From Methanobacteriota archaeon (GTDB lineage Archaea > Thermoplasmatota > E2 > DHVEG-1): DNA of 64,000 nt. Below, one piece after another: positions 1 to 64,000 of this stretch. Both the position numbers and the translations under genes were made by a program. Positions within the stretch are counted from its first letter, which is position 1, and each line of letters opens with the position of its first letter. The notes beneath the pieces were generated by a model that saw only the letters and a list, made by a program, of their open reading frames with translations, was not told where the DNA came from and searched no databases. The stretch lies in the NCBI GenBank assembly GCA_043806635.1, contig JAZDGT010000038.1:14641-78640 (forward strand). The letters are read 5' to 3'.

Positions 1-664
1 GTAATAGTAACCCTGTTTCGACGGATCCCCGTGTTCGTAATTCAAAAAATCCATCGAAGGTATTTGGTACTATAAGGTTGAATACTAATGTATCCTGTTG
101 TACGATATTGCCGCTAAAGTTGTAAGTAATCTCTTGTATCGAATAGCTTTGGTCATAATATCGAAGAGTTATTACTCCTTCAGACAGACAATTACTGTTC
201 GCAAAGAGATTACTGTAGTACTCAAGACTCACTTGGAGAGTAACAGTTGGTTGTGCAGAATGGATTTTGAAATGAACATTAGTTTGGGACACTCCGCATG
301 CCTGAGTGGAATCATTTAGGGGTTCTTGCATAATAAATTGGAGTTCTTTCTGATGGATTCTGAATCCATTGCTTAGTTGACTCCCCTCAGTGAATTCCTT
401 ACTATATGCTGTAGAGTGAGGATAATTCTCTTGCCATGCCTCTACTGAGGCGTTGAACCCTGTGTGGGAATCAGACTCCGTATTTGAGCCAAACCCTGGG
501 CTGCATACATACCCAATCGCTAACGAGTAAGGATGATAAATTTCCATACTGTTCATTGGGCGCGCTTGTAGTTTAATGGTTCTTGCTGTTGCAGTGGTCA
601 TCGTCGCCGTTGAGAGCATCACCAGCATTCCAATCATTGAGATTGCTTTCCATATGTTCTTCAT
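1..664 (-). CDS. Secreted protein of unknown function, partial (C-terminal part runs off the window)
   Basis: Absent from the ORF track because it is open at the window edge. My reverse-complement translation from ATG 664-662 reads MKNIWKAISMIGMLVMLSTATMTTATARTIKLQARP... with no stop down to position 1. GGTGA lies about 8 nt upstream. The N-terminus looks like a Sec signal peptide. Confidence 0.6.
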   Translation of the reverse strand, partial: MKNIWKAISMIGMLVMLSTATMTTATARTIKLQARPMNSMEIYHPYSLAIGYVCSPGFGSNTESDSHTGFNASVEAWQENYPHSTAYSKEFTEGSQLSNGFRIHQKELQFIMQEPLNDSTQACGVSQTNVHFKIHSAQPTVTLQVSLEYYSNLFANSNCLSEGVITLRYYDQSYSIQEITYNFSGNIVQQDTLVFNLIVPNTFDGFFELRTRGSVETGLLL

Positions 665-836
665 TTTTTTTCACCATTTTATTTTTTTAAATCCAATTGT
701 TGAGTTTTTCACTTAAATACTTTATTTACTAATTATCGAACAAAAAAATAAAAATTAAAAAATAATGATAGAAAATAAAAGATATGCTTTAGAAATAAAA
801 TGCCGATTCCTACAATCCTTGAACGGAACACTCATT

Positions 837-2111
837 CTAGAAGCGTCTTCTGAACAGTTTACTCCACTTCCGCGTACTCCCTGTCAACAACCGATCTGTC
901 CGGAATACCCACACCACGATCATGATCATCACTACCGCGAAAATGGTGACATACACGATACCACCGATCACTAATGCGTAATCATGGAAAAGTAACGCCC
1001 GTGGAGCCATCATCGGATGAGAAAACGGTATCGCAAACGCAAACACTTTCAGCACAGGCGGCAACGTATCAAAATCCATGAACATCGTCAGAAACATCGG
1101 AATCAACGCCAACATCGTCACCGGGAACGTCAACGTCTGCGCACTCTTGTAATTCTTCGCGAACGTCCCCAGAAGCATACACAACGACAATCCTGCAATC
1201 AACGCCACAAACAAAGAAAGCCCAATCCAAATGAAATCCTCAACAGTTAACGAAAGACCATACGCCGCAAGATTCCCCCCAGCAGATACCTCCATCCCCG
1301 AAAAATAATATCCCATACCAATCATGTAGATCACAGCAAGAAGAAGACCAATCACTGCAGCAGCAACAATTTTCCCCGTCACAATACTCGTCCGTTTCAC
1401 CGGTAACGTCAACAACGTCTCCAAGGTTTTATTCTCTTTTTCCAACGCCATAGATGTAATCACAATACTCCCCGCCATAATGATAATCATCATGATCACA
1501 ATCGGGATGAGCATCGACTGCGACGCCAACATCCCCGAGATCGTATTCGGAGAAAGACCAACAAACTCCCTGTCCTTGAATTTCGTCGTCTCTATCCTCT
1601 GCGTCGGCGAAAGCACCACCGAGGCATTCACTGTGATGTTCCCCTTGATGAGATCCTGTGAAATATTTGTATTAATCACAGAAATCAATGCTTCAACCAC
1701 ATTAGAAGAAATACTATCAAAAAGCCCTGCCCCTTTCATGATCCAATACACTTCAATGAAGCCTTTATGACCAGAAAGAATGCGCTCCGTGAAATTCCGC
1801 GGAATAACCAATAATGCGACTCCATTCTGGTCAGTCACCGTCTGTAAACCGATTTCTTTATCAGCAATCGAAGACGAATTATACACCACCCGTCCGTAAT
1901 GAGAAAACACCTCGGTTGCAATCATCGAAAACGTGGTATTCTCCTCATTAATCACCCCAATCACTGGCGGTGTTTTCGCTTGCTCCTGAATCCCAGAGAT
2001 ACTATTCCCCATCGACCCAAAAATCAACGCGACAAAAATAATTGGTAAAAACGTCTGAATCGTAAGCAACTCACGAATCTCCTTCCTGATGATATTCCCA
2101 AGTCCACTCAT
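837..2111 (-). CDS. ABC-2 type transporter permease
   Basis: 424 aa with one N-terminal TM, a large extracytoplasmic loop and a C-terminal cluster of about 5 TM, typical of ABC-2/NatB-like permeases. Overlaps the upstream ATPase gene by 4 nt, so they form an operon. Confidence 0.8.
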   Translation of the reverse strand: MSGLGNIIRKEIRELLTIQTFLPIIFVALIFGSMGNSISGIQEQAKTPPVIGVINEENTTFSMIATEVFSHYGRVVYNSSSIADKEIGLQTVTDQNGVALLVIPRNFTERILSGHKGFIEVYWIMKGAGLFDSISSNVVEALISVINTNISQDLIKGNITVNASVVLSPTQRIETTKFKDREFVGLSPNTISGMLASQSMLIPIVIMMIIIMAGSIVITSMALEKENKTLETLLTLPVKRTSIVTGKIVAAAVIGLLLAVIYMIGMGYYFSGMEVSAGGNLAAYGLSLTVEDFIWIGLSLFVALIAGLSLCMLLGTFAKNYKSAQTLTFPVTMLALIPMFLTMFMDFDTLPPVLKVFAFAIPFSHPMMAPRALLFHDYALVIGGIVYVTIFAVVMIMIVVWVFRTDRLLTGSTRKWSKLFRRRF

Positions 2112-2824
2112 GACCGCACCACCCTCGTAAACACCTCTTCAACATTTTGAACCTGATATTTCTCCATTAACGTTTTCGGGTTCCCTTCTTCCACGATCTT
2201 CCCCTCAGAAATCAACGCGATACGATCACACAGATATTCCACCTCAAGCATATTATGCGAAGACAATAGCACAGTCGTTCCGTTTTTTGCGGTTGTTTTA
2301 ATCAGTTTCCGGATCTCTTGTGCATTAATCACGTCTAACCCTGAGGTGGGCTCATCCAGGATTGCGAATTTCGGATCCGTCATCAACGCCCTCCCAACCA
2401 AGAGACGACGCATCATTCCCTTGCTATACGTATCAACTCGATCAGAGATACGATTCCCGAGATTCGCAATCTCTATCCCACGACGCACCATTTCTGGTAC
2501 TTGCTTCGCATCAAAAAAATTCGCGATAAACTGTAAATATGCTCGCCCCGTCAGATTCTTATACGCTCCAGCGTCCTCTGGCAAATAACTAATAATCTTG
2601 CGGATTTCACTTGCCTCTTTTTTAAGATCACGACCCGCAATCATCACTGACCCTGAGGTGATCGACAACAATGTTGAAAGGATACGTAATGTCGTTGTTT
2701 TCCCGGCACCGTTTGGACCAATTAGCCCAAAGATTTCCCCCTTATTCACCGTAAATGAGATTCCTTTCACTGCCTCAAATGATCCATAGTTTTTCACAAG
2801 ATTTTTAACCTCAATTGAAACCAT
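2108..2824 (-). CDS. ABC transporter ATP-binding protein
   Basis: Walker A GPNGAGKTT, Q-loop, degenerate signature YSKGMMRR, Walker B AILDEPTSGLD, H-loop SSHNM. Confidence 0.9.
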   Translation of the reverse strand: MVSIEVKNLVKNYGSFEAVKGISFTVNKGEIFGLIGPNGAGKTTTLRILSTLLSITSGSVMIAGRDLKKEASEIRKIISYLPEDAGAYKNLTGRAYLQFIANFFDAKQVPEMVRRGIEIANLGNRISDRVDTYSKGMMRRLLVGRALMTDPKFAILDEPTSGLDVINAQEIRKLIKTTAKNGTTVLLSSHNMLEVEYLCDRIALISEGKIVEEGNPKTLMEKYQVQNVEEVFTRVVRS

Positions 2825-2966
2825 TTTTTCTCTTCCCTCCTCATCATTTTTATTACTTTGTTGTTTACTTTGGTCTTAAACACAACATCAAATACTTCTT
2901 TGACTTCTCTAGTGAGAGATCGTTCTTTTATTGACACCAGTATTTGTTTTTTCCCTAGCAAGGTAA

Positions 2967-3146
2967 TCATTTTTTCTTTTTAAGATATTCTTTTCGGATC
3001 TCGTCGGCGATGATTCCGTCTTCAATGATGAATGCGCCGATGTATCCGCAGTCTTTACATTCCCATTTCTGTCGATCATGGGGGAGTACCCAGCCGAGGT
3101 TCGATGATCCGCAATGGGGACAAAATTTTATTGGTTTTTTAGTCAT
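2967..3146 (-). CDS. Small zinc-ribbon protein
   Basis: CPHCG...CKDCG four-Cys ribbon. I prefer the start at MTKKPIKF (ATGACTAA overlap with the stop of the upstream gene) over the longer track ORF 2967..3188. Confidence 0.5.
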   Translation of the reverse strand: MTKKPIKFCPHCGSSNLGWVLPHDRQKWECKDCGYIGAFIIEDGIIADEIRKEYLKKKK

Positions 3147-3354
3147 AGGTATACCCGCATTTTGCACAGTGATAGGTGTTTCCATCAAATCGTAGTTTCG
3201 TGTTCCCGCATGTTGGGCAGGTCCCGAGGACGCGCTCCTCGAGCATTTGAATCCTGTTGAGTTCTCGTTCAGTGAGCTGAGAGAGGTTTATCCATGGATT
3301 TTTTTTCCACCAGTTCCAGGTTTTTTCACTTAAAGTAATCGTGACTTTTTTCAT
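3139..3354 (-). CDS. Small protein with a zinc ribbon and a possible RHH-like N-terminus
   Basis: CPTCG...CAKCG ribbon. N-terminal KKVTITLSEKTW beta-strand-like segment. ATGA overlap with the stop of the hydrolase gene. Confidence 0.5.
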   Translation of the reverse strand: MKKVTITLSEKTWNWWKKNPWINLSQLTERELNRIQMLEERVLGTCPTCGNTKLRFDGNTYHCAKCGYTYD

Positions 3355-4697
3355 GGGTTTTCGTCCACTTGAGAAATCCAGGTGATGATGTCAGTGATCA
3401 CGGTTTGATTGACATGTCCTGCGGTGAGATACTCGGTATTGGTTGGTACCCCGGTTCCTTCGATAAAAAGATGATTTAACAGGGGGTGGGTGTGTAGGGT
3501 TACTCGCGGATTCTGTGAAAAGGTGGTGTTCCATCGTGTGTAATCTGCTTGGGTGACTTGATAATCGCGTAAGCCTTGCATGATCAACATGGGGATGGTA
3601 ATATTCTCTGCTGTGGAGACAGGATCATAGGTAGCAAGGTCTGCCCAGTAGCTTCTCGGTGCACCGAGGACGTATTCTCCGTCGCTGATGTTGAGAGTTT
3701 TAATTTGTATAGCAAGTTCTTGTACCGCTGCTATTTGTTGTGCTTCTGTTTCAGAGATATTCCCATCAAGGTTTCCGAGATATTCTGTTTGTTCAACAAA
3801 GAGGTCTTCCAGTGGTCTGGTGTTTCCTGCCAGTATAATGATTCCAGAGAGCATGGGTGCTTCTTGGGCGATCCGTGGAGCAAGCATTCCTCCAAGACTA
3901 TGGCCGAGGACGAAAATCTGGTTTGGATCAACCATCGGGTATCTTGTTAGTTGGTCGACAGTGATGACTGCATCGTCGATGGTTTCATCTTGTACGGTGA
4001 AGTTTTTAAGGGCAGTGAATTCAGTCGGGTATTGTTTCGTGCGTTTCACATATCGAAGAACAACGATACCGTTTGAGGCTAACCCCCAGGCGAGGTCTTT
4101 AAAAGGTTTATTGGGGCCAATGGTTTCATCCTGGTCGTTCGGTCCTGATCCGTGTACAAGGACGACTACGGGGAACGGGCCGTCGCCATGAGGAACAGAG
4201 AGGATAGCAGGGAGTAGCCATGGGTTGGTACCGATAGTGATATTCGTGTCAGAAAACGCTGAGAGGTTCACGTAGTCTGGTGGTTCGTACTCATAGGTTA
4301 CTTCGGTGGGCACGAAGAAAAATCCAACGATTTTAGTATTGTTCAAAAAAACGCATTTGATGTCAAGGTTTCCTAACTGTGAAAATGAGCAGGTGACGAA
4401 GATATAGGTATAGTTTGCTTCATACGCGGTTCGTGTGTTATCAATACCTTCGAAATCTCCATAGAGTTGTATTAATGCAGTCCAAGCGTCTTTTAGATAA
4501 GTGATATTAATTTGCTGCTGGACACTCACATCCAGGATATCGTATGCCGCTGAATAATTACCATTGCTGAGATCGGTAACCAGTTCTCTTGCAATGTCAT
4601 CCTGCGTTTTTTCTGGTGGGTTCGGTGTTTCTACGCATCCAGTGAGTGCCACTGAAAGAGTCATAATTATTATTATTACTATCACTTTTTTTTTCAT
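3351..4697 (-). CDS. Lipoprotein-type alpha/beta-fold serine hydrolase
   Basis: N-terminal signal with lipobox-like LTGC. Nucleophile elbow GHSLGG. HGSGP oxyanion-type motif. 448 aa. Confidence 0.75.
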   Translation of the reverse strand: MKKKVIVIIIIMTLSVALTGCVETPNPPEKTQDDIARELVTDLSNGNYSAAYDILDVSVQQQINITYLKDAWTALIQLYGDFEGIDNTRTAYEANYTYIFVTCSFSQLGNLDIKCVFLNNTKIVGFFFVPTEVTYEYEPPDYVNLSAFSDTNITIGTNPWLLPAILSVPHGDGPFPVVVLVHGSGPNDQDETIGPNKPFKDLAWGLASNGIVVLRYVKRTKQYPTEFTALKNFTVQDETIDDAVITVDQLTRYPMVDPNQIFVLGHSLGGMLAPRIAQEAPMLSGIIILAGNTRPLEDLFVEQTEYLGNLDGNISETEAQQIAAVQELAIQIKTLNISDGEYVLGAPRSYWADLATYDPVSTAENITIPMLIMQGLRDYQVTQADYTRWNTTFSQNPRVTLHTHPLLNHLFIEGTGVPTNTEYLTAGHVNQTVITDIITWISQVDENP

Positions 4698-4755
4698 CGT
4701 TTGTTTCTCCCAATTTTTTTTTTAAAAATACCTAGTGGTCCGATTATGGTATTAG

Positions 4756-5070
4756 TTATTTTAGTGTTACCGCAGTCCCGTAGGCGAGTATTTCGGCAGC
4801 GCTTGCCATGATGGCTGAGGTCATGAAGCGGACGTTGATGATGGCATCTGCCCCAAGTTTTTCTGCTTTTTCTTCCATTCGTTTGAGGGCGATTTCTCGT
4901 GCTTCGGAGAGCATGTTGGTGTATTCTTTGATTTCTCCGCCGACGAGGTTGCGGAATCCTGCGGCGATGTCTTTGTAGAAGACTTTGGCTTGGACGGTGT
5001 TTCCTCTGACCATGCCGAGTATTTCTTTGATTTCTCTTCCGGTTATGAAATCGGTGTTTGTGATGATCAT
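4756..5070 (-). CDS. YbjQ/UPF0145 family protein
   Basis: 104 aa. The pattern MIITNTDFITGREI...GMVRGN...GGEI..Y...L..AR..AL.RM...A..LGADAIINVRF matches the YbjQ_1 family as I recall it. Confidence 0.8.
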   Translation of the reverse strand: MIITNTDFITGREIKEILGMVRGNTVQAKVFYKDIAAGFRNLVGGEIKEYTNMLSEAREIALKRMEEKAEKLGADAIINVRFMTSAIMASAAEILAYGTAVTLK

Positions 5071-5306
5071 GGTTCGAAATCCTCCTTTTTTATTTTTTGT
5101 TTCATTTTCTTCATGGTTTTTACTTGATCGATTGCTATTGATACAATCAGAATGAGTATTCCGATGAGGATGATTCCTCCGATGAGGAGTGTTGTGAGGT
5201 CTAACGTCTGCATTATTTCATCAAAACCTAGATAGAGTCCATAGAAAGCCCATATGAGTATTCCTCCAATGAGGAGGATGAGTCCTAGTATTGTTCCTTT
5301 ATTCAT
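5067..5306 (-). CDS. Small membrane protein (2 TM)
   Basis: Hydrophobic 79-aa product starting at MNKGTILGL. 4-nt overlap with the downstream ybjQ-like gene. Confidence 0.5.
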   Translation of the reverse strand: MNKGTILGLILLIGGILIWAFYGLYLGFDEIMQTLDLTTLLIGGIILIGILILIVSIAIDQVKTMKKMKQKIKKEDFEP

Positions 5307-5318
5307 AGATACACATCC

Positions 5319-5346
5319 ATACACGTTCTAATACGTGTATACACGT
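5319..5346. promoter_or_regulatory. Overlapping perfect palindromes (candidate operator) in a divergent promoter region
   Basis: ATACACGT-tctaat-ACGTGTAT (5319-5340) overlaps the 14-nt perfect palindrome ACGTGTATACACGT (5333-5346). A TTTAAAAATA TATA-like element lies at 5361-5370. Confidence 0.5.
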
Positions 5347-5472
5347 ATACAGACAAGATATTTAAAAATACCGCTCACCAACCTCCCCAAACCTAAAAAA
5401 CGGTTATAAAACAAAACACGCTATCCGCTCCTAAAAAAGACATGATAAAAAAGTGACCGAGGACACAAACCT

Positions 5473-6654
5473 ATGAACAAACAAACCATCCTCAAAGGAC
5501 TCACCCGAAACATCATCATCGTCGGATTCGTCAGCCTCTTCACCGACCTCAGCAGCCAAATGGTCTTCCCCGTCATCCCCCTCTTCTTACTCTCACTCGG
5601 CGCAAGCGCATCAATAATCGGACTCGTCGAAGGAGCAGCAGAAACCACCGCATCACTCCTCAAAGTCTTCTCCGGATACTGGTCCGATAAAATCAAAAGA
5701 CGAAAACCATTCGTCTTCGCAGGATACGGACTCTCCACCCTCACCAAACCCCTGTTCGCCATCGCGTACATCTGGCCGTTTGTCCTCTTCATCCGCGTCC
5801 TAGAACGCATCGGCAAAGGAGTACGAGACGCACCACGAGACGCAATCATCGCAGAATCAGTCAACTACTCCATCCGCGGAAAAGCATACGGATTTCAACG
5901 AGCAATGGACGGCATCGGCTCCTTCTCCGGCGCCATACTCGCCGTGATACTCCTCCCCATCTACGCATATCGACACCTCTTCCTCATCGCGTTCCTCCCC
6001 GGGATACTCGCTGTCCTCATCATCCTCTTCATCAAAGAAAAACACACAAAACAAAAGGATAACAAACAACCAAGAATAAAACTCAGCGTTGGCCTCAGAA
6101 AACTCCCCAGAACCCTCCAACTCTTCATCCTCGTATCAACCATTTTCGCCCTCGGCAACTTCGGCTACGCATTCCTCATACTTAAAACAAAAAGCATAGG
6201 GTATTCTGACGTCACCGCACTCACCCTCTACGTCCTCTTTTATATCATATACACCCTGTTCACAATACCCGCAGGAATACTCTCCGATAAAATAGGGAGA
6301 AAACCCGTCCTCATCACCGGATACCTCATCTTCGCAGCCACCACCATTTGCCTCCTCTTCACCACACAACTCGTCCTCCTCATTCTCGTCTTCATACTCT
6401 ACGGAGTCTTCTTCGGGTTAATCGACGGAGTACAACGCGCCTTCGTCGTCGACCTAGCACCCACCGACCTCAAAGGAACCGCACTCGGAACATTCCACAC
6501 CATAACCGGGATAATCGCCTTACCCGCAGGATTCATCGCAGGATTCCTCTGGGATACCATCTCCCCACAAGCAACATTTCTCTATGCACTCAGCCTCACC
6601 CTCTGCTCCCTCGCCTTATTCACCGTAATCAAAAACCCAAAACCCACTTCCTAA
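5473..6654 (+). CDS. MFS transporter
   Basis: 393 aa with about 12 TM in two halves joined by a basic central loop. MFS-like GxxSDKxGRK(P) loop motifs in both halves. Confidence 0.85.
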   Translation: MNKQTILKGLTRNIIIVGFVSLFTDLSSQMVFPVIPLFLLSLGASASIIGLVEGAAETTASLLKVFSGYWSDKIKRRKPFVFAGYGLSTLTKPLFAIAYIWPFVLFIRVLERIGKGVRDAPRDAIIAESVNYSIRGKAYGFQRAMDGIGSFSGAILAVILLPIYAYRHLFLIAFLPGILAVLIILFIKEKHTKQKDNKQPRIKLSVGLRKLPRTLQLFILVSTIFALGNFGYAFLILKTKSIGYSDVTALTLYVLFYIIYTLFTIPAGILSDKIGRKPVLITGYLIFAATTICLLFTTQLVLLILVFILYGVFFGLIDGVQRAFVVDLAPTDLKGTALGTFHTITGIIALPAGFIAGFLWDTISPQATFLYALSLTLCSLALFTVIKNPKPTS

Positions 6655-6746
6655 CCACACAAAAAAATATTCATACAACCAAAACATTTTCCAACCAAAC
6701 TCTATTCCATCCTATAAAACCAAACGAACACAACACGAGGAAAAAA

Positions 6747-7454
6747 ATGAACATCATCTTTTTCGGCGATAGCCTCACCAAAGGACGATCCGGACTCTCC
6801 TACGTACCACTCCTTCAACAACAACTCCCCCAACACAACATAATAAATCAAGGGAAAAACGGTGACACTATCGCAAGCCTGTACTACCGCATCAAAAACA
6901 TGCAACTACCTGATGCCATCGATATCGCCTTCATCTGGATCGGAGTCAACGACATACTCACCTGCATCAAATGGCCCTTCTCATTCATCCCCAAACTCCT
7001 CGTGTTCCAACCATGGGCGAAATCCGACGAAGAATTCACACACTACTACCAAAAAATCATTGACCTCCTCCACCCCCACACAAAAAAAATCATCACCGTC
7101 TCACCCTTATACATCGGAGAAGACATCCACAACCAATGGAACACAAGACTTCAGGAGCTATCAGAGCTCATCAAAATACTCTCAGAATCTTCTCCAAACA
7201 TACGGTATCTCGATTTACGAACACGATTCCAAACAGAACGACCCTCCCTCCCACCAATCTCCCCATATATCCCAAGTAGCACCGCATTACTCCTCGATGA
7301 AATCATCTATCATACACCTGAAAAGATTACTCGGAAGGGGAAACAACGAGGATTATATTATACGGTGGACGGTGTCCACCTCAACAAACGAGGTATACAA
7401 CTCGCCGCTCAAGTATTCCATGAGCAAATCACCCAATTGACACCAAGATCATAA
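6747..7454 (+). CDS. SGNH/GDSL-family hydrolase
   Basis: Starts MNIIFFGDSLTKG (block I, Ser nucleophile). GxND block (GVNDI). DGVHLN near the C-terminus (block V, D-x-x-H). The track ORF start at 6348 is an out-of-frame run-on over the MFS gene. Confidence 0.75.
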   Translation: MNIIFFGDSLTKGRSGLSYVPLLQQQLPQHNIINQGKNGDTIASLYYRIKNMQLPDAIDIAFIWIGVNDILTCIKWPFSFIPKLLVFQPWAKSDEEFTHYYQKIIDLLHPHTKKIITVSPLYIGEDIHNQWNTRLQELSELIKILSESSPNIRYLDLRTRFQTERPSLPPISPYIPSSTALLLDEIIYHTPEKITRKGKQRGLYYTVDGVHLNKRGIQLAAQVFHEQITQLTPRS

Positions 7455-7472
7455 CACTAAAAAAAACATTAC

Positions 7473-9881: not shown

Positions 9882-10028
9882 GATAGAAACCTGCTTCGGT
9901 CTACCACGAAGTATACTGAGGATCCCCCAGGGGGGCAAACCATTCTGTTATATCTTTGAATCTCTATTTATAATTTAGCATAATTATAAAAAAACAGTTT
10001 TAGAAAAAGAGGATGTCCTCTGTTGTGT

Positions 10029-10571
10029 TCACCATTTTTCGTAGCGGACGATTTCAACCAAGCTCTTCCGCTTCGTCCCTCGAGTCACCGCTTTAATAAT
10101 TTTATTTGTTGTCCCCTTTTTCTCGAGAGGATACCCTAGTGGGGATAACGCGACTACTCTCATTCGTTTGGGAAGCCCTAATATCTCCTTGACTTTTTGT
10201 TCATCGAAACCACCAATCCAGCAGGTCCCGAGCCCAGCATCCGTTGCAGCAAGAACCAAATGCTCCATGGCTATCGCAACATCCACGAGGTAATAATCGA
10301 TGTCGTTCTGGTCTCCACTCTCTGAGGGATCGCCACAAGCGACGATGAGTATTGGTGCGTTTTTCAGCCATCGATTAATGATGCTTGTTTTCGCGAGTTC
10401 CTGAATTGTTTCTGTCTCTGTTACGACAAGAAAACGCCAGCATTGTTTATTCGCCCACGATGGCGCAAGGCGTGCACATTCAAGCACGTACTCAAACTTC
10501 TCCGGTTCAACCTTCTGATCACTAAAGGATCTAATGCTCGTTCGCTCTTTCACCACGTCTCTAAATTCCAT
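10029..10571 (-). CDS. Nitroreductase family protein
   Basis: 180 aa. RTSIRSF near the N-terminus, PSWANKQCWRF, and the C-terminal GxxCWIGGF pattern typical of the FMN nitroreductase fold. Confidence 0.8.
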   Translation of the reverse strand: MEFRDVVKERTSIRSFSDQKVEPEKFEYVLECARLAPSWANKQCWRFLVVTETETIQELAKTSIINRWLKNAPILIVACGDPSESGDQNDIDYYLVDVAIAMEHLVLAATDAGLGTCWIGGFDEQKVKEILGLPKRMRVVALSPLGYPLEKKGTTNKIIKAVTRGTKRKSLVEIVRYEKW

Positions 10572-53265: not shown

Positions 53266-53354
53266 CTGACCCCATCTCGAAAAATGAACAACGAAACGAA
53301 TAGCATCGTCTAGTTTTAAGGTTTGTGATTCACCAAAAAAAATTCTACTGTTTT

Positions 53355-55058: not shown

Positions 55059-55343
55059 GCCCTCGAACCCACAAAAACTGCTTGCCAAGATTGAGTATAC
55101 GTGGTGATGTTTTTAGTATTATGGTTCTTGAACAAGAAAAAAATACTTACGCACGATAGGTATTATATATACTTTTCGATAAAAATCAGTTTGTGACGTA
55201 GATGAACACACCATACACACAAATCCGCCATGTACACACGCTTCACATGTCAACAAGTATCATTTTTTCCGAAAAAGATATAAAACAGGAAAAACTAACA
55301 TTAAAATAGAAAGACAAAAAAGACGAAAACATAAGGAATAACC

Positions 55344-55640
55344 ATGATCAGCATGAAAATATACAAACAAGGAAAAGACATCCTTGTCAGCGCCTGCGAC
55401 AAACACCTCCTCGGTAAAACATACAGACAAGGCAAACTCCAGATTGATGCCTCAGAAAAATTCTACGGAGGCGATGTCGTCGATGCAAAAACACTCCGTG
55501 GACACCTGATGATGGCGACGATCGCCAACCTCGTCGGAGAGGAAGCCGTAAACTGTGCGATACAGCTTGGTCTTGTCGACAAAACCTGTATATTAAAAAT
55601 CAAGGGAATCCCCCATGCGCAGATGGTGCGCATGCTATAA
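55344..55640 (+). CDS. DUF424-family protein
   Basis: MKIYKQGKDILVSACDKHLLGK...GIPHAQ pattern recalled from archaeal DUF424/COG2412 proteins. 98 aa. Confidence 0.6.
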   Translation: MISMKIYKQGKDILVSACDKHLLGKTYRQGKLQIDASEKFYGGDVVDAKTLRGHLMMATIANLVGEEAVNCAIQLGLVDKTCILKIKGIPHAQMVRML

Positions 55641-57557: not shown

Positions 57558-58082
57558 ATGATCGCATTTCTTATTACGACCATCCTGTGTTTCATCATCT
57601 ATCTCCTGTTCACGACGGGCAGTGGAACCGCGGTGATGGGACTATGGAGCTATGAAGAACTCGCTCTTGGAGTAATACTCTCGCTACTCATCGGGTTTAT
57701 CGCCCGGAAGATTTTTGTGAAACAAAACTATCGTATGTTGAACCCTGTGAGATGGTTCCTGTTCCTCGCTTATGTGATTGGTCCGTTTTTTTTTGCACTC
57801 GCGAAAGCCAACCTTGATGTCGCCTACAGAGTAATCACGGGGAAGATTCACCCTGGTATCGTCCGGATCTCCCCTGATCTAAAAACTGATCTGGGGATCA
57901 CGATGCTGGCGAACTCGATCACATTAACACCGGGTACCTTAAGCGTGGATATCGATGAAGAAACAAATGATTTGTATATTCATTGGATCAACGTTGATGA
58001 GAAAGCATTAGAGAACAAGCCGGTTGACTGTAAATATATTTGTGGGAATTTCCCGAAGTGGGTGAGGAGGATCGCGGAATGA
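57558..58082 (+). CDS. mnhE: Mrp/Mnh antiporter subunit E (MbhA-like)
   Basis: 174 aa with two N-terminal TM and the ITLTPGT motif of MnhE. First gene of a tightly overlapping operon. Confidence 0.8.
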   Translation: MIAFLITTILCFIIYLLFTTGSGTAVMGLWSYEELALGVILSLLIGFIARKIFVKQNYRMLNPVRWFLFLAYVIGPFFFALAKANLDVAYRVITGKIHPGIVRISPDLKTDLGITMLANSITLTPGTLSVDIDEETNDLYIHWINVDEKALENKPVDCKYICGNFPKWVRRIAE

Positions 58083-58347
58083 TCGACGTGTATACAACAT
58101 ATTTGATTGTGGTGATCGCACTTGGTTTATGCACCATTTTAGCGCTTCTACGGGTTTTCCTTGGACCGACTGCTCCTGATCGTGTTGTGGTGTTGATACG
58201 ATTAACACGATTGTGATCGTGGGTATGGTGGTGTTCGGTGCTGCGTTCAATGAAGTCATCTATATTGACGTCGCGATCGTATATGCGTTTCTGTCGTTTA
58301 TCTCCACGTTGTTTATCGCGAAATATCTTGAGGGAGGGGAGTTTTAA
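58079..58347 (+). pseudogene. mnhF: Mrp/Mnh subunit F (MbhB-like) with a 1-nt frameshift near 58195
   Basis: Absent from the track. ATG 58079 gives MIDVYTTYLIVVIALGLCTILALLRVFLGPTAPDRVVVL, then a stop at 58214-58216. The next frame continues TINTIVIVGMVVFGAAFNEVIYIDVAIVYAFLSFISTLFIAKYLEGGEF to a stop at 58345-58347. The MnhF consensus ..DRVVALDTINT.. implies one missing G (TTGGAT -> TTGAT). Confidence 0.75.
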
Positions 58348-58348
58348 G

Positions 58349-58783
58349 ATGGTGCTTGCACAAGTGTTTGATGCGGTAATTTACCTGTTACTTGGTATCG
58401 GGGTTTTCTTCAACCTTTTAGCAGGAATCGGACTCTTACGATTCCCTGACGTGTATACGAGGTTGCATGCGGGGACGAAATGTACCACGTTTGGCTCTAT
58501 CTTCATTATCGGTTCAGTGATACTTATCGGATTAAAAAATTGGGTATGGTGGCCGTATAATGTGAATGGATCAGTCCTTGCAATCCACTCAGCTATCGCG
58601 TTAGTCGCGATTCTCTTGACGAACCCGGTAGGTGCGCATGCGATCGCTCGTGCTGCGCATCGAAGCGGGGTGATGCCTGCGCAGGCGGTCGTAGATGATT
58701 TGAAACAGACGCCGCCGAATAAACGGGGTAGAAAGAAAACCAATAATACGAAAAAAATTATGGAAAACGAGGGAGGGCCATAA
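58349..58783 (+). CDS. mnhG: Mrp/Mnh subunit G (MbhC-like)
   Basis: MVLAQVFDAVIYLLLGIGVFFNLLAGIGLLRFPDVYTRLHAGTK matches the PhaG/MnhG signature. Basic C-terminal tail. The track start at 58238 is a run-on. Confidence 0.85.
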   Translation: MVLAQVFDAVIYLLLGIGVFFNLLAGIGLLRFPDVYTRLHAGTKCTTFGSIFIIGSVILIGLKNWVWWPYNVNGSVLAIHSAIALVAILLTNPVGAHAIARAAHRSGVMPAQAVVDDLKQTPPNKRGRKKTNNTKKIMENEGGP

Positions 58784-58784
58784 A

Positions 58785-59036
58785 ATGCTTATTGAACTTG
58801 CGAATAGCATCATACTCATCCTCATGGTTGTTGCTGCCGTGTTCGCCGTGTTCTTAAAAGATCTTCTTGCTGCAGCTGTTGCATTAGCGGCGATGAGTCT
58901 GCTGTTATCCCTTGAGTTTTATCTTTTACAAGCCCCTGATGTGGCGATCGCGCAGGCTGGTGTGGGTGCGTGTCTATCTACCGCGATTCTTATCATTGCG
59001 ATAAAAGCGACGAAGCGTATGGAGGATGAGAAATAA
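58785..59036 (+). CDS. MbhD-like (DUF4040) membrane subunit
   Basis: 83 aa, 3 TM, with the APDVAIAQAGVGA motif typical of the MrpA C-terminal/MbhD family. Confidence 0.7.
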   Translation: MLIELANSIILILMVVAAVFAVFLKDLLAAAVALAAMSLLLSLEFYLLQAPDVAIAQAGVGACLSTAILIIAIKATKRMEDEK

Positions 59037-59309
59037 ATGGAGAAGCGGGATATGGTTGCGGCTCTCTTTTTCACGGTTGTTGCCGTTTTTTTTGTGTTCA
59101 GTATGCTTCTGATTCATCCGTTTGGTGACCCGGGAAGCCCTGCTATGGATGATTATATTATTCTGCATACTCAGGGTGAAGCAGGAACGAACAACGGGGT
59201 TACCTCTGTCGTGTTTGATTATCGAGGTTTTGATACACTTGGTGAAGCAACGATCCTGTTTACTGCTGTTGCTGGTGTGATCATGATCTTTCGGAGGGTG
59301 AAACCATGA
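59037..59309 (+). CDS. MbhE-like small membrane subunit (MnhB-related)
   Basis: 90 aa with the [23 protein letters not shown] motif. Confidence 0.7.
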
Positions 59310-59779
59310 CCGAGATGTCAAAGATTGTGCGGACGGTTACGAACATGATTTTCCCGTTGATTATGATATTCGGGTTGTATGTGATCGCCCATGGACATCT
59401 GACTCCTGGTGGTGGGTTTCAGGGTGGCGCTGTTGCTGCCTCAGGGTTGGCTCTCTTGCTTGTTGCCTATGGATCCCCCTGGGTTTTTGAGAGGATTAAA
59501 GAGAAACATCTTTCGATGTTCGAAAGCATTGGTGCGGTATGGTTTATCGTGGTTGCGTTGCTTGGTCTAGCCTTTGGAAGTGTTTTTTTCCTGAATTTCC
59601 TAGTTGGAACACCCGTGTTTGGTAACATACCTCAGTTTGGTGCCACAGTTGCTGATCTGAACACAGGTGGTGTGTTGCCATTAATGAATTTCGCGGTGGG
59701 GTTGAAGGTGATTGCTGGGTTGTTTGTGGTTGTCCTGGTGATGGCGTTCGCTAGTAATTGGAAGGAGGGGAAACCATGA
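59306..59779 (+). CDS. mnhB: Mrp/Mnh subunit B (MbhF-like)
   Basis: [15 protein letters not shown] motif. 157 aa, 4 TM. Confidence 0.85.
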
Positions 59780-60135
59780 TTCTGAATCTGCCGTTTCTTA
59801 TTGTTGTTGCGACGATATGTATTGGGTTGTTCGCTGTTCTTTTTAAGAGGAATCTGATTAAGCTCGTGATTGGGATCTCGATTATTGAGAATGGGGTGAA
59901 CCTCTTTTTGATCACCTTGGGGTATCGTGAGGGTGGTGTTGCACCGATTTACACGAGTTTCCCGTCTGAGGTAACATCTGCTGGGCAGATGGTGTTACCG
60001 GTGCCTCAGGCGTTGACCCTGACTAGTATCGTGATTGGTGTGGCGGTGCTTGCGTTGATGTTGTCGTTAGTGATGTATATTTATCGTCATTATGGAACTT
60101 TGGATGTTCGGAAGATGAGGAGGTTGAAGGAATGA
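59776..60135 (+). CDS. mnhC: Mrp/Mnh subunit C (NuoK-like, MbhG-like)
   Basis: Start [10 protein letters not shown] is preceded by GGAGGGG. 119 aa, 3 TM, IIENGVNLFLI motif. ATGA overlap with mnhB. Confidence 0.85.
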   Translation: MILNLPFLIVVATICIGLFAVLFKRNLIKLVIGISIIENGVNLFLITLGYREGGVAPIYTSFPSEVTSAGQMVLPVPQALTLTSIVIGVAVLALMLSLVMYIYRHYGTLDVRKMRRLKE

Positions 60136-61724
60136 ACGCGCCAGATTATGTGATTCCCTTGATTGTGGCGACGCCGCTTCTTGGTGCGTTTCTCACGCCC
60201 TTGGTGAGTCGGCTGGGGGAGAAAATCCGGCAGGTTTTCGTCCTTGTCATCCTTGGTATCACTGGAGTTTTTATAGGTTTGTTGGGGTCTGATGTGTTCA
60301 CGTCTGGTGTTCCTCGGACCTATATTTTTGGTGCAAAAAATCTTAGTCTTCCTGTTGTCCGTATCTTGTTTGAAGTCGACAGTATGAGTCTGTTCATGGC
60401 TCTGGTGAGCTTCGTTTTAGTGTTGGTGGCAGTAATCTATTCTTGGTCGTTTATGAAGGAGCATGATGGACTGGATAAGTATTACACACTGCTGTTATTG
60501 TTATTTACTGCGATGCTGGGTATGGAGCTTACTGGTGATTTGTTCAACTTCTTCGTCTTCTTAGAAATCACGTGTATTTCTTCTGCTGCATTGATCGCGT
60601 TTTGGGTGTACAAACCAGAGGCGGTTGAGGCTGCGTTTAAGTATATCGTGGTTAGCGCGATTGGTGCGTTGTTTATTCTGTTCGCAATCGGGTTGTTGTA
60701 CGCGCAATATAATGCGTTGAATATTGGTGTGATCGGTAGCTTGTTACAGTTCACGTTTTTAGACAAGATAGCGTTGGTATTGTTCCTTGTTGTTCTGACG
60801 ATGAAAGCAGGGTTAGTCCCGATGCATATGTGGTTACCGGATTCGTATGGGCAGGCACCGCATGCGGCGACTCTGGTGATTATTGGTGCGACCCAGGCGA
60901 GCCTATATGGGCTGTTACGGATCTGTTTCACCCTTTATGGGAACGTGTTCAACGAGATATCCCCTGTCTCCTCAATGGTTTTCGGGGGGCTCATCACTGG
61001 GTTAGCACTCCTCGCGATATTCGTTGGGGTGATCATGGCGTTGATGCAGACTGATTTCACCCGGTTGATTGCGTATGCTGCGGTTGCTGAGGTCGGATAT
61101 ATTCTCCTAGGTATCGGTGTTCGTTTATCGTCTGTGCAGATCAGCTTCGATGCTCTTGGCCTAGGTCACGTAGTCACGTATCCAGCGTATGGGGTGACCG
61201 CGTTACAAGGAAGTGTTTTTCATATCTTCAATGATGTCTTAGATATCGGTCTGTTGTTTTTGGTCGCTGGTGCCGTGTATTATGCGACGAAAGAACGTTC
61301 TTTGGATAACCTCGCCGGGTTATCTCGACAGATGAAATATACGACCGTGTTTTTCATCATCGGTTTTCTTGCGATCTCAGGGATGCCGCCGATGAACGGT
61401 TTCGCCTCTAAACTCATGCTGTATGAGTCAACGTTCCAGTTGAACCCGATCCTGGGTATCGTCGCAATCCTCTGCAGTATCCTGCTTCTTGCCGTGTTCG
61501 TGAAAGTCTTTTATTCCGTATTCCTCGGGCCACAGCTTCCACACATGATTGAGGTGAAAGAAGTCCCCCGGAGTATGTTGATTGCGATGGCGATCATCGC
61601 AGGACTCATCATCTTCATCGGGTTGTTCCCAGATCTCATATTACAGAATCTTGTACAACCCGCAACACAGGCGCTCTTTGGGTATAAAACGTATTTCTCA
61701 CAAGTTATCATGGGGGGAATCTAA
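60132..61724 (+). CDS. mnhD: Mrp/Mnh subunit D, antiporter-like (NuoM/N family, MbhH-like)
   Basis: 530 aa with about 14 TM. Proton-antiporter motifs (KAGLVPMHMWLPD, GMPPMNGF). It is the only large antiporter-like subunit in the operon. Confidence 0.85.
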   Translation: MNAPDYVIPLIVATPLLGAFLTPLVSRLGEKIRQVFVLVILGITGVFIGLLGSDVFTSGVPRTYIFGAKNLSLPVVRILFEVDSMSLFMALVSFVLVLVAVIYSWSFMKEHDGLDKYYTLLLLLFTAMLGMELTGDLFNFFVFLEITCISSAALIAFWVYKPEAVEAAFKYIVVSAIGALFILFAIGLLYAQYNALNIGVIGSLLQFTFLDKIALVLFLVVLTMKAGLVPMHMWLPDSYGQAPHAATLVIIGATQASLYGLLRICFTLYGNVFNEISPVSSMVFGGLITGLALLAIFVGVIMALMQTDFTRLIAYAAVAEVGYILLGIGVRLSSVQISFDALGLGHVVTYPAYGVTALQGSVFHIFNDVLDIGLLFLVAGAVYYATKERSLDNLAGLSRQMKYTTVFFIIGFLAISGMPPMNGFASKLMLYESTFQLNPILGIVAILCSILLLAVFVKVFYSVFLGPQLPHMIEVKEVPRSMLIAMAIIAGLIIFIGLFPDLILQNLVQPATQALFGYKTYFSQVIMGGI

Positions 61725-61726
61725 GC

Positions 61727-62062
61727 ATGTTCACGATTGATACCGGTGCAGGGTATTGGACCCCGCTTATCTGGTGCCTCATCCTTGTCATTACGTTTCT
61801 GCTCATCTACATCCTGAGAGGGTTCGGACGGAAAGACTACAAAAAAGATACGGATCAAGTGAAATCATTCCTCTCAGGGAACATCGAGGCTCCATCGGAG
61901 CAGCATATCAAAGCGAGCAATCTCTACTGGGGGTTCACAACAAGCCTGAAATGGTTATTCGGACTTTTACGACGGATGCATACGGGGAACGCGAGTGATT
62001 ACGTCCTCTGGTTCATTATTATCCTTGCGTTGTTCTTCATCGTGGGGATGGTGGTGATCTAA
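61727..62062 (+). CDS. Small membrane subunit, MbhI-like (assignment tentative)
   Basis: 111 aa with TM helices at both ends and an amphipathic middle. Its position between the MbhH-like and MbhM-like genes matches Mbh/Mbx gene order. Confidence 0.5.
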   Translation: MFTIDTGAGYWTPLIWCLILVITFLLIYILRGFGRKDYKKDTDQVKSFLSGNIEAPSEQHIKASNLYWGFTTSLKWLFGLLRRMHTGNASDYVLWFIIILALFFIVGMVVI

Positions 62063-62063
62063 G

Positions 62064-63164
62064 ATGGATATCCAAGCAATCGTTGAACTCGTCTTCCTAC
62101 GAATCATCCTTGGAGGGCTCTTCCTCACCGGTTTCGGTATCTTCTTCGGGTTACTCTTCAAAGGGATTGATCGGAAAATCGCTGCACACATGCAAGGCCG
62201 GATTGGGCCACCCATCACCCAGCCTTTCAGGGATGTTAAAAAACTGTTCGTGAAAGAAAACATCATCCCCGAGCAGGCGATACCCTGGATCTTCAACCTC
62301 GCCCCACTCATCGGGTTAATCGCCACCATCTCAATACTCCTATATCTACCGATTCTCCCATTCGGCGCACAAGGAGCATTTAGCCCGATTCTCCCAGCCT
62401 GGGGTGGAGACCTAATACTCATACTCTATCTCCTCATTATTCCCTCCCTTGCGATGGTCATCGGCGGGTTCTCCTCAGGCTCCCCTTACGCAGTCGTTGG
62501 TGCACAACGAGAGATGGCGACCATGATCGCGTATGAGTTCCCCCTCGCCATCATCATTATTAGTATCGCATGGAAACTCCTCCAAACCAACCTCGGTGGA
62601 CCAGTGTTCACATTCTCCTTACTTACCTCAACACCCGTCTGGAATCTCGCAGGCCCGTTTGGGTTCATCGGATTCATTGTCCTCCTGCTCGCACTCATCC
62701 TCGTCACCCCTGCAGAGTTATCAAAGATCCCATTCGATTCCCCAGAAGCAGAAACCGAGATTGCTGGAGGCTTACTCGTTGAATACTCCGGGCGGAACCT
62801 CGCTATGTTCTACCTCACCGATGGTGTGAAGACTGTGGTAATGGCATCACTGATTGTCGCGTTGTTTTTCCCGTATAATTTGACGCAAGCAGGGTTACTC
62901 CATGGGTTGGTAGGTACATTGCCTGGGTATGCTTTAGATATCCTGTTCTTCTTCCTGAAAGTATTCCTGATTATCTTGTTCTCCGTCACCCTGATACGCG
63001 TAGCAATCGCGCGATTAAGGATTGACCAAATCGTCTACACTTACTGGATTCCCATCACCCTCATGGCATTGATCGGGTTAATCCTGATCATGTGGGATAC
63101 ATGGACGATGGCGCAGTTCGGCTGGTCCCCCGTCCTAGAAATGCTGAGAATTATCAAACCGTGA
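62064..63164 (+). CDS. NuoH/HycD/MbhM-family membrane subunit
   Basis: GIDRKIAAHMQGRIGPPITQPFRDVKKLFVKENIIP matches the DRK..A..Q.R.GP....Q...D..KL..KE signature of complex-I subunit-H homologues. 366 aa, about 8 TM. Confidence 0.8.
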   Translation: MDIQAIVELVFLRIILGGLFLTGFGIFFGLLFKGIDRKIAAHMQGRIGPPITQPFRDVKKLFVKENIIPEQAIPWIFNLAPLIGLIATISILLYLPILPFGAQGAFSPILPAWGGDLILILYLLIIPSLAMVIGGFSSGSPYAVVGAQREMATMIAYEFPLAIIIISIAWKLLQTNLGGPVFTFSLLTSTPVWNLAGPFGFIGFIVLLLALILVTPAELSKIPFDSPEAETEIAGGLLVEYSGRNLAMFYLTDGVKTVVMASLIVALFFPYNLTQAGLLHGLVGTLPGYALDILFFFLKVFLIILFSVTLIRVAIARLRIDQIVYTYWIPITLMALIGLILIMWDTWTMAQFGWSPVLEMLRIIKP

Positions 63165-63240
63165 ATATCCTAGCGTTACACCCCTTTTATCTATCACAAT
63201 ACTCTTAAACCATATCCCCAATTACGGGACGATTCTTCCT

Positions 63241-64000
63241 ATGGATACACAAAAAAAATCATCACAAATTAATGATACCACTATTGTCGGTGTCTTCTTC
63301 CTTATTCCCACCATCATGCTTCTATTCGGATATTTTGTCTTCCCCTATCCACAGCCTGAGCCAACAATACTCGTCACCTACTCCCTCTTATTCTTAGGCT
63401 TACTCCTCCTAGGTATCGGTTATCTCAAAAAAGATAACATAACCGCGAGTAAAAGTAAAATTGCAGGATGGGTTCTTTTTTCCTCATTCTGGGCGACCTA
63501 CCCCCATCATCTCTACTACTCTGAAGGCGGAGATATTTTTAACGCAGCAGTCTGCATCATCGGCGTTTACGTCTTATTCTACCTCGCCTACCAAGAATGG
63601 CTCTCCATACAAAAAAAAGAATACCCCGCCAGTCTCAACTGGATCGCAGGAGGAACGTTTCTTGCTGGAATCATCTACTTCACCATTGATATTGGCGTAT
63701 TTCCCCAACTGAAGACTACCCTCATTGAGATAGTGGCCTCTCATAGTACGATGGTGTTAAATCTTTTTAATTTACACGCTACCAATCAAGGATCGATTAT
63801 CAAGTACGCGGGGACAACGATCACTATCATTTTTGCATGTACCGCAATTCAATCGATGGTCCTCTTTGTCGGAATGATCGGAGCATTACACACGAACATG
63901 AAAAAAAAAAACTCATTGGTATCACCATCACGGTCATCCCGATTTATTTGCTCAACCTTATCCGTAACGCAGGGGTCATCTTTTTAGTTGGAGGAAATAT
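63241..64000 (+). pseudogene. Archaeosortase-family protein, frameshifted in an A11 run (63901-63911). The 3' end is beyond the window.
   Basis: Polytopic membrane protein with the catalytic-Cys context IIFACTAIQSM. After the poly-A run the annotated frame gives nonsense (NSLVSPSRSS...). The alternative frame reads LIGITITVIPIYLLNLIRNAGVIFLVGG, which holds the conserved Arg about 41 residues after the Cys, as in ArtA. Confidence 0.7.

Follow-up and report, generated by a model that had tools for sequence, protein, structure and literature searches.

A conserved kilobase-scale mosaic of keto/amino strand skew in a Thermoplasmatota contig

The window analysed here is a 64-kb stretch of archaeal DNA (contig JAZDGT010000038.1 of assembly GCA_043806635.1, positions 14,641 to 78,640; 42.6% GC), along which the plus strand is a patchwork of A/C-rich, G/T-rich and neutral blocks; in the DP1-DP2-MCM region, their polarity recurs in related genomes. 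Archaeal genes were recognized with Pfam: MCM, PolD DP1 and DP2, RadB, the diphthamide synthase Dph2, NifS and NifU, along with genes for a Mrp/Mbh-type membrane complex, an ABC-2 transporter, an MFS transporter, a GDSL lipase and an SF1 helicase. All open reading frames (ORFs) in the skewed blocks proved to be real genes, on the strands given below, and two LAGLIDADG inteins are present, one in DP2 and one in NifU. The only Rfam RNA gene in the window is that of the SRP RNA (43299-43613, minus strand); no other known RNA gene was found in it even at E<=0.1, and no tRNA. [quoted passage not shown] The metagenome scans with DP2 yielded no relative above about 73% amino acid identity (DP2), or about 80% for MCM, and a scan with the helicase as query gave no match.

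We measured the keto skew, (G+T-A-C)/N, in 500-nt windows, with 200 shuffles as the null. Its values lie between -0.34 and +0.60, with GC and AT skew varying together, and its standard deviation (SD) is 0.166 versus 0.045 in the shuffles (maximum 0.052), where absolute values stay at or below 0.21 as against 0.60 here. GC skew reaches about 0.5, AT skew about -0.45 and third-position skew up to +/-1. A 3-state hidden Markov model (HMM) called six A/C-rich and nine G/T-rich plus-strand blocks, which amount to 20.7 kb or 32% of the window, with at least 12 polarity changes in 64 kb and neutral stretches of 5-9 kb between them. Fourfold-degenerate sites are 92% A/C in the MFS gene (A.31, C.61, G.05, T.02; n=218) and 84% G/T in MCM (A.10, C.06, G.57, T.27; n=303), the neutral genes having A/C/G/T at about.29/.24/.25/.21. 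Within genes, third-position skew was followed in bins of 40 codons, whose values are given in percent: the helicase reaches -100% and MCM +95%, and in DP2 the skew passes smoothly from -95% to +95% within one reading frame. The change at a border is gradual, not stepped, and takes 100-250 codons; many blocks have the shape of a hump.

Such a mosaic had been proposed from a reading of the sequence by eye, with hand counts that we reproduced exactly: 38 of the first 40 MFS codons end in A or C, while G or T ends 33 of 40 in MCM and 29 of 40 in an mtaD-like gene (from the ATG at 18778). Sliding-window, fourfold and HMM checks agree that the keto/amino mosaic is real, at coordinates close to those of the original prediction. 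Most of its blocks stand; however, 61730-63200 has an overall skew of about 0 and is biased at third positions only (-0.25), the block placed at 55340-55640 exists but is better placed at 55131-55460, and the region 25100-41000, described as unbiased, holds three small patches. The skew is carried by wobble positions, as proposed, but also by non-coding DNA, codon positions 1 and 2, and amino acids. Both polarities occur on both coding strands: among the gene segments, 14 are G/T-type, 10 A/C-type and 12 neutral on their coding strand. Plus-strand third-position skew is unrelated to gene strand (r=0.07), and neither gene orientation nor a single replication direction explains the pattern, as had been anticipated.

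At the left end of the window, the ABC-2 permease and part of the ATPase genes occupy a block (739-2273) in which the minus, coding strand is G/T-rich (plus-strand keto skew -0.23; permease third positions +0.53). An inserted segment follows (2825-5365), with genes for an alpha/beta hydrolase, a YbjQ-like protein and orf85, all on the minus strand; here the plus strand is G/T-rich and the coding strand A/C-rich (third-position skew -0.73 in YbjQ and -0.26 in the hydrolase; HMM block 4603-5218). The hydrolase of this three-gene insert carries a DUF3887 domain, and the third gene is a small membrane ORF. The strongest A/C-rich plus-strand block (5365-7290; HMM 5219-7468) takes in the 5' leader of the MFS gene, the MFS gene itself (third positions -0.81), the MFS-GDSL spacer and most of the GDSL lipase gene. 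The MFS-GDSL junction is peculiar to the lineage of the window, and in some relatives (L162-L164) genes for an IS200/IS605-type TnpB (OrfB_IS605, Cas12f-like) lie 3' of MFS. The plus strand is G/T-rich again over 7962-9811, where the N-terminal 640 or so codons of the minus-strand SF1 helicase have a coding strand nearly free of G and T (keto skew up to +0.60); the last 180 or so codons (7473-8100) have a normal composition.

A neutral domain (9812-17271; keto skew 0.00, fourfold skew -0.29 to +0.02) holds the nitroreductase, HisRS, PIN, hypothetical, QueC, intein-bearing NifU and NifS genes, in an order kept in the relatives L161 and L170-L175. The NifU gene with its LAGLIDADG intein (14622-16082) lies in this skew-neutral DNA, and intein-bearing NifU homologues are very common across several phyla in the protein database (best 120 matches listed). 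NadA is split into two minus-strand ORFs, at 17866-18225 (N-terminal 119 aa) and 17272-17835 (C-terminal 187 aa), and is one ORF in L170-L175; the split reflects a frameshift or a stop, due either to a pseudogene or to an assembly error. A plus-strand G/T-rich domain then covers orf144 and the amidohydrolase, DUF401, AAA_33, Dph2 and RadB genes, all on the plus strand (18336-25561; third positions +0.22 to +0.59; HMM blocks 18981-19851, 20795-21689 and 25079-25561). The last of these blocks overruns the RadB stop by about 500 nt into the 3' end of a convergent giant gene, whose last bins read -24 to -35. The two tandem giant genes (25115-33025 and 33201-40979; 2636 and 2592 aa) code for multidomain surface proteins with NosD/beta-helix, laminin-G, PKD, PQQ beta-propeller and DUF2341 domains; their GC is below that of the rest of the window, and they occupy the place of the EF-2/S7/S12 cluster that follows MCM in relatives. 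Small blocks are found in the 5' third of giant gene 1 (31230-32663; minus strand G/T-rich, keto skew -0.19, bins +55 to +75) and at the 3' end of giant gene 2 (33200-33670; plus strand G/T-rich, keto skew +0.36, coding bins -55, -45 and -30).

Next comes a block with a G/T-rich minus strand (41814-44604; plus-strand keto skew -0.23) that comprises the first 470 or so codons of MCM (bins up to +95), the SRP RNA gene, orf96 and the antisense of a plus-strand MNT (nucleotidyltransferase)/HepT-like toxin-antitoxin pair (44042-44624). This pair lies directly upstream of a low-GC (0.32), skew-neutral insert located between DP2 and the SRP RNA gene (44605-48071), which contains at least five small paralogous ORFs with similar, signal-peptide-like N-termini (MNKKI.IG...); these ORFs show up as the direct-repeat families D1-D4. 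The minus strand is G/T-rich again over the DP2 C-extein, the 3' part of its intein and about 300 nt past the stop (48072-49979; bins +80 to +95; fourfold skew +0.84 in the C-extein and +0.47 in the intein). DP2 spans 48367-53265. Polarity switches inside it (49980-50932; intein start at about nt 50571, codon ~899), and the plus strand is then G/T-rich, and the coding strand A/C-rich (bins down to -95), over DP2 codons ~30-780 and the 5' two-thirds of DP1 (50933-55130). This block has two parts, 50933-52739 (+0.31) and 54125-55130 (+0.29), on either side of a neutral dip (52740-54124), and ends sharply by the DP1 promoter region. A short A-rich and A/C-rich plus-strand patch (55131-55460; keto skew -0.32) covers the spacer upstream of DP1 and the start of a small divergent ORF. 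Finally, the Mrp/Mbh-type genes MnhE, G, B and D have a G/T-rich plus strand (57558-61284; third positions +0.11 to +0.41; HMM 58825-61284), while the NuoH-like gene and the next one, in the same operon as Mnh (62064-64000), have weakly A/C-ending codons (third positions -0.25 and -0.24; fourfold -0.31 and -0.41). In the skewed blocks, shadow ORFs or spurious 5' extensions appear on the plus strand at 42256-43203, 8521-9006, 3688-4191 and 6348-6749, because the biased composition strips stop codons from some frames; antisense to MCM, there are as few as 5.7 stops per kb.

The bias lies in the DNA and is not a matter of codon choice. Indeed, non-coding DNA inside an A/C-rich block is as skewed as the genes, with -0.50 in the MFS leader (5365-5472, 108 nt) and -0.56 in the MFS-GDSL spacer (6655-6749, 95 nt). 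In the helicase, over about 1.6 kb of coding strand, every tolerant position is A or C and the motifs GPPGTGKS and DEASQ are retained; this saturation around preserved motifs therefore reflects many rounds of mutation and selection, not one event. In the skewed part of this protein, 44% of residues are K, N, T, Q, H or P, versus 32% in its own unskewed C-terminus and 37% in an orthologue, and across orthologues first-position skew correlates with third-position skew (r=0.67-0.80). The skew thus reaches codon positions 1 and 2 and amino acid composition. A seeding of polarity by amino-acid-driven positions 1 and 2 was rejected, as DP2-N, DP2-C and MCM are alike in neutral relatives.

The two coding classes are mirror images of each other. 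Fourfold composition, read on the G/T-rich strand, is A.10, C.08, G.52 and T.29 in G/T-type genes and A.05, C.08, G.51 and T.36 in A/C-type genes; one process therefore acts on opposite strands, with A to G and C to T on one strand and T to C and G to A on its partner. The effect of neighbouring bases is weak, and the analysis of fourfold-site context revealed no deaminase-like sequence context. These observations argue for a mutational origin and against selection at the translational or RNA level, and the mirror symmetry also speaks against a motif-specific deaminase. Selection on transcripts or translation, acting through two codon dialects (NNC/NNA and NNG/NNU) or through a preference for unstructured mRNA, would account for the effect being strongest at third positions, and the translation genes of relatives do show a mild preference for C/A-ending codons, including in genomes that are neutral otherwise. 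However, it would leave unexplained why the bias extends to non-coding DNA and to positions 1 and 2, why the two classes are exact complements, why polarity flips within single genes and operons, and why the most extreme genes code for a transporter, a lipase and a helicase. We consider it very improbable, the mirror symmetry and the non-coding skew having already largely refuted it.

A dedicated enzyme aimed at particular loci, either a single-strand DNA deaminase or a mutagenic polymerase, would fit a lineage-restricted bias made almost purely of transitions, strand-coordinated and locally saturating. Yet the bias lacks the context preference that known deaminases show, such an enzyme would have to deaminate both A and C, Pfam reveals no candidate gene in the window, and housekeeping genes such as DP1/DP2 and MCM would be odd targets; we therefore hold this explanation to be unlikely. 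Templated hypermutation by a diversity-generating retroelement was also considered and rejected, the changes being A to G and C to T transitions over kilobases and not adenine-specific; there was no reverse transcriptase among the ORFs scanned, and the repeat search covered 43200-48400.

The pattern is not restricted to one contig. The relatives share the gene order Mnh-ThyX-RibD_C-Mut7C-DP1-DP2-SRP RNA-MCM (in one of them, L008, ThyX at about 1447-3000 is split by some 800 nt between alignment residues ~126 and ~100, which may be an intein), and the SD of the skew goes up to 0.17 in several of their loci versus about 0.05 in the Archaeoglobi and Halobacteria loci of the same search. We counted polarities in the loci with at least 55% identity, using cut-offs of <=-0.2 and >=+0.2. 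DP2 codons 1-800 fall at or below the lower cut-off in 43 loci and at or above the upper one in none (121 scored), and DP1 in 22 and 6 (93 scored); MCM is distributed the other way, with 1 and 19 (68 scored), as is the DP2 C-extein, with 4 and 18 (104 scored). The A/C-type stretch of DP2 terminates at the same place, species after species. The orthologous ABC-MFS and HisRS-Dph2 regions of other relatives are mostly neutral, so conservation of polarity can be demonstrated for DP1-DP2-MCM only. Patchy skew is a heritable trait of this MBG-D-like lineage of Thermoplasmatota, and its conserved polarity in independent contigs therefore excludes an assembly chimera and makes random recombination breakpoints untenable. 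A chimeric contig had been among the causes first suggested, and the window does come from a metagenome-assembled contig of 79.7 kb; chimerism or sequencing from a damaged template is nevertheless refuted for practical purposes, with hardly any probability left to it, since long ORFs with intact Pfam domains and unbroken frames span every border, and the same polarity pattern recurs in contigs from many independent studies and assemblers.

In the relatives, polarity can extend far beyond single genes. In L144, 12 of 13 genes carry the sign of a G/T-rich top strand over 19 kb; in L153, the top strand is A/C-rich in 6 of 7 genes, with reversed types for MCM (now A/C-type) and EF-2 (now G/T-type). 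L015, L020 and L029 have a G/T-rich top strand that extends from the DP2 end through MCM (plus strand) to EF-2 and ribosomal protein genes (minus strand). Across 111 loci, the coding-strand skews of neighbouring genes correlate at +0.43 for tandem pairs, -0.32 for divergent pairs and -0.37 for convergent pairs, these pairs being mostly the same orthologous junctions repeated, so that the effective sample is small. Polarity is thus a property of the strand over domains and not of the gene.

The skew also arose in place. L161, a Logan contig, has the same hypothetical-PIN-HisRS-nitroreductase-helicase-GDSL order as the window and is neutral throughout; amino acid identity to it is 63-73% for neutral genes and 65.5% for the unskewed helicase C-terminus, versus 52-53% for the skewed part of the helicase and GDSL, so the skewed parts evolved faster in place and were not recently imported. 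The region from HisRS to Dph2 is syntenic with L170-L175, so the change from neutral to G/T-rich near 18 kb does not stem from a local rearrangement. In DP2, the same relative (L079) ranks first or nearly first in identity on either side of the flip, from N1 (82%) through N2 and the middle to C (88%), and only the intein differs; the intein is closest to those of other lineages (62% identity to L001/L099) and yet carries the local G/T-type skew. The inserted low-GC DNA at 44605-48071 is neutral. What we observe is thus a long-lasting, strand-asymmetric mutation pressure acting in place, from which purifying selection spares only the residues that the proteins need, over domains that disregard gene orientation and gene borders and measure about 0.3 to 7 kb here and upwards of 10 kb in relatives.

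Some of the flips have a simple origin. The ABC ATPase (minus) and MFS (plus) genes directly adjoin in L165-L169, where the window has a 2.5-kb insert of opposite polarity, and without this insert the A/C-rich plus-strand block would be continuous from 739 to about 7290 across the divergent ABC/MFS pair. Likewise, MCM starts about 750 nt after DP2 in relatives, and the 3.5-kb insert at 44605-48071 divides a block that is continuous there from the DP2 C-extein through the SRP RNA gene to MCM. Two apparent polarity flips are therefore the borders of inserted DNA. Other flips lie within conserved synteny with gene orientation unchanged, namely at GDSL/helicase, helicase/nitroreductase, MnhD/NuoH and HisRS-to-RadB.

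These data bear on the idea of a strong chromosome-wide replication skew scrambled by inversions, by translocations or by homologous recombination with relatives whose locus lies on the opposite replichore, the last of which had also been suggested at the outset. Third positions and non-coding DNA are indeed skewed regardless of orientation, some relatives keep one polarity over a whole locus of 11-19 kb whatever the orientation of their genes, two flips in the window are insertion borders, and the switch beside replication genes could be a chromosomal origin. Nevertheless, polarity is far from constant along the window, with 15 skewed blocks; flips occur inside conserved synteny where genes have kept their orientation, and saturated blocks have nine kb of fully neutral housekeeping genes next to them. 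Recombination fares no better: no phylogenetic incongruence is seen across the DP2 flip, borders are graded, skewed segments are more diverged and not less, and about one site in three would differ between alleles of opposite polarity, which is too many for homologous recombination. We thus give such a scrambled replication skew only a slim chance.

The switch inside DP2 was located in an alignment of 85 DP2 genes, of which the 22 with strongly A/C-type N-terminal parts were averaged. Their mean third-position skew is about -0.45 up to codon ~750, about -0.25 at codons 751-825 and about -0.08 at 826-875, and crosses zero at about codon 866-896, being positive from about codon 876-896 on; the maximum-likelihood changepoint falls at codon 773-894 in 19 of the 22, and at 894 in the window. 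In all 32 intein-bearing genes (about 38% of those sampled), the intein is inserted at core codon 887, and two intein types of 486 and 510 residues, about 24% identical, occupy this identical site in different relatives. The switch thus lies at the target site of the homing endonuclease or no more than about 115 codons upstream of it, whether or not a lineage has the intein. Synonymous-site entropy shows no dip that would indicate a conserved element embedded at the switch.

Viewed along the plus strand, the domains form a series of doublets in which an A/C-rich arm is followed by a G/T-rich one, the arms being 0.5-7 kb long and either fading to neutral or abutting the next arm. Their centres lie at 7.3-8.0 kb (where the GDSL and helicase genes converge), 18.2-18.3 kb (between NadA and orf144), 32.7-33.2 kb (promoter region of giant gene 1), 50.0-50.9 kb (inside DP2) and 55.5-57.6 kb (between ThyX and MnhE). 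In every doublet, the G/T-rich strand runs 5' to 3' away from the centre. This polarity fits leading-sense synthesis from an initiation point, the nascent strands of break-induced synthesis or the non-template strands of divergent transcription, and it does not fit the 3' tails left by resection.

We tentatively propose that the domains may be footprints of DNA synthesis that starts repeatedly at fixed points and runs outward, be it break-induced, recombination-dependent or origin-like, because this would be the most economical account of polarity as a strand property, of the doublet geometry and of the DP2 centre. Synthesis would restart at preferred points and proceed outward on both sides. 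The strand running 5' to 3' away from the centre, newly made in the leading sense or, equivalently, single-stranded for the longest time, would gain G and T along one of two routes: its A and C would be deaminated in the single-stranded state, or misincorporation of the G.T type would escape correction. The outcome would be an A/C-G/T doublet whose arms fade with distance, its best-defined centre being the target of the DP2 intein homing endonuclease, and later foreign insertions would cut the domains and add apparent flips. The graded, hump-shaped borders are as expected from a distribution of tract lengths. In yeast, long and mutable single-stranded nascent DNA accumulates during break-induced replication (PMC6765108, PMC9262586, PMC5702615), and in Haloferax, endonuclease-driven homing of an intein in an archaeal polymerase gene has been described (PMC3024317). 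The patchwise single-strand deamination first suggested was right in part: the class of chemistry fits, with transitions on one strand, which one process or another would expose or resynthesise.

The main rival is exposure linked to transcription: the G/T-rich strand would be the non-template strand, displaced in bubbles or R-loops, by sense transcription in G/T-type genes and by dominant antisense or read-through transcription in A/C-type genes, perhaps in a self-reinforcing manner since a G-rich non-template strand stabilises R-loops. Such positive feedback would account both for saturation and for the same locus being neutral in some lineages. Three centres do lie at promoter regions (NadA/orf144 at ~18.3 kb, ThyX/MnhE at ~57.5 kb and giant gene 1 at ~33.0 kb), the A/C-type block of MFS starts right after a TATA-like box and the DP1 block ends at its promoter, leaders and intercistronic spacers share the skew, the overrun of the RadB-operon block into its convergent neighbour resembles read-through, and the level of skew varies gene by gene within an operon. 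One has to keep in mind, however, that the sign does not follow the sense strand, as the 10 A/C-type segments and the swing of DP2 from -95 to +95 illustrate. The MFS and DP1 blocks begin or end by TATA-like boxes, and other borders fall inside genes. Transcription would need strong antisense or internal promoters in DP2 and at the convergent GDSL/helicase ends, with antisense outweighing sense in the essential DP1 and DP2 across dozens of species, and the DP2 switch lacks the conserved synonymous sites that would mark a promoter embedded there. Transcripts would have to be implausibly long to give L144 and L153 their uniform polarity, which holds for 11-19 kb whichever way the genes point. 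Moreover, the genes expected to be most expressed (EF-2, the ribosomal P1/L12-type protein and an S12-like ORF) are not G/T-type in strongly skewed relatives but A/C-type or in line with the local strand domain; taken as a proxy for expression level, this speaks against a simple model of sense transcription exposing the non-template strand. On balance, we regard transcription as a serious but rather unlikely explanation.

Outward synthesis from fixed points has its own difficulties, which weigh against it as follows. It needs five or six centres in 64 kb, which would fall at about 7.6, 18.3, 33.0, 50.5 and 57.5 kb, and we found no common motif at the five A/C-G/T centres, no Orc1/Cdc6 gene among the neighbours tested and no ORB-like repeats in the repeat search of 43200-48400; the DP2 switch itself is intragenic and shows no hallmarks of an origin. 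Promoter regions coincide with three of the centres, and the DP1 promoter is exactly where one arm stops; transcription predicts both more directly. The match between the DP2 switch and the intein site is suggestive but not decisive, being one shared feature with a probability of roughly 1-in-10 by chance. The DP2 zero-crossing does coincide with the intein insertion site, but the DNA around the NifU intein is neutral, both in the window and in L170, L172 and L173 (which are low-skew genomes), and the other centres have no known break site. Homing may be far too rare to saturate synonymous sites. As deamination of the 3' tails of resection gives the opposite polarity, the model hinges on mutation of the nascent strand. 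Finally, when synonymous changes were polarised in relatives of moderate skew, most proved to be transitions, with a net flux that opposes the skew, which hints at decay of the skew and not at its upkeep, although a parsimony bias is expected in such counts and clouds them.

Several known systems share some of these features. Bacterial replication skew, with its G/T-rich leading strand, is alike in that G exceeds C and T exceeds A on one strand, at third positions and in non-coding DNA, independently of orientation, and in that a single polarity spans the whole locus in some relatives; it differs by the frequent flips seen here, by the saturated blocks that lie beside neutral ones in conserved synteny and by an amplitude here that goes far beyond the usual for archaea. 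Archaeal skews were rated as weak and mainly tied to gene strand in a 2026 survey (PMC12999951). The strand asymmetry of vertebrate mitochondria, which is due to strand-displacement replication, also involves A to G and C to T changes on the strand that remains single, near two-letter third positions, a graded intensity and an amino acid composition that is dragged along; however, it has one polarity in a small genome with a known mode of replication, whereas many short domains of both polarities are found here on a cellular chromosome. Strand-coordinated clusters of mutations from break-induced replication or resection (kataegis-type; PMC6765108, PMC9262586) resemble our domains in their kilobase tracts, their single-strand origin and a coordination that switches at the break, but they are single events in experiments or tumours, whereas the present pattern is an evolutionary equilibrium under selection, seen across species and without an APOBEC-like context. 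R-loop-prone GC-skewed promoters (PMC3787257, PMC10030826) share the kilobase scale, a displaced strand rich in G and, in several blocks, an onset close to transcription starts; here, in contrast, the sign is not tied to the coding strand, flips occur within genes and operons, and domains span opposed genes in relatives. The nearest published case is that of a Microgenomates (CPR) bacterium from a deep aquifer (PMC7143001), an uncultured subsurface lineage with a strong, unexplained strand disparity shared by its relatives, which is, however, chromosome-wide, of one polarity and limited to G/C, without AT skew. We found no description in the literature searched of such a mosaic in MBG-D/Thermoprofundales or in other archaea. 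The pattern is thus a strand compositional asymmetry in a form not previously described, real, strong and conserved, which standard models of replication and transcription do not explain.

This has practical consequences. Tools that rely on codon usage or composition for gene calling, binning or the detection of horizontal transfer will misfire on such DNA, and the stop-poor antisense frames yield long shadow ORFs that gene callers could mis-annotate. Phylogenies of the affected proteins will be distorted by convergent amino acid drift, as illustrated by 52% versus ~70% identity in one syntenic block. In return, the mosaic offers a readout, from sequence only, of which strand is repeatedly single-stranded or resynthesised in unculturable organisms, and it bears on chromosome replication and repair in slow-growing archaea and on the question of whether long-range mutational scars are left by selfish homing endonucleases. 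It is possible, though doubtful for now, that sediment Thermoplasmatota are subject to an unrecognised mutational regime in which synthesis repeated at fixed points, including the homing site of an intein in the replicative polymerase gene, leaves antisymmetric G/T-versus-A/C footprints on a kilobase scale, strong enough to remodel their proteins. If outward synthesis from fixed points proves true, the sequence alone would map recombination-dependent or multi-site initiation of replication in uncultured archaea.

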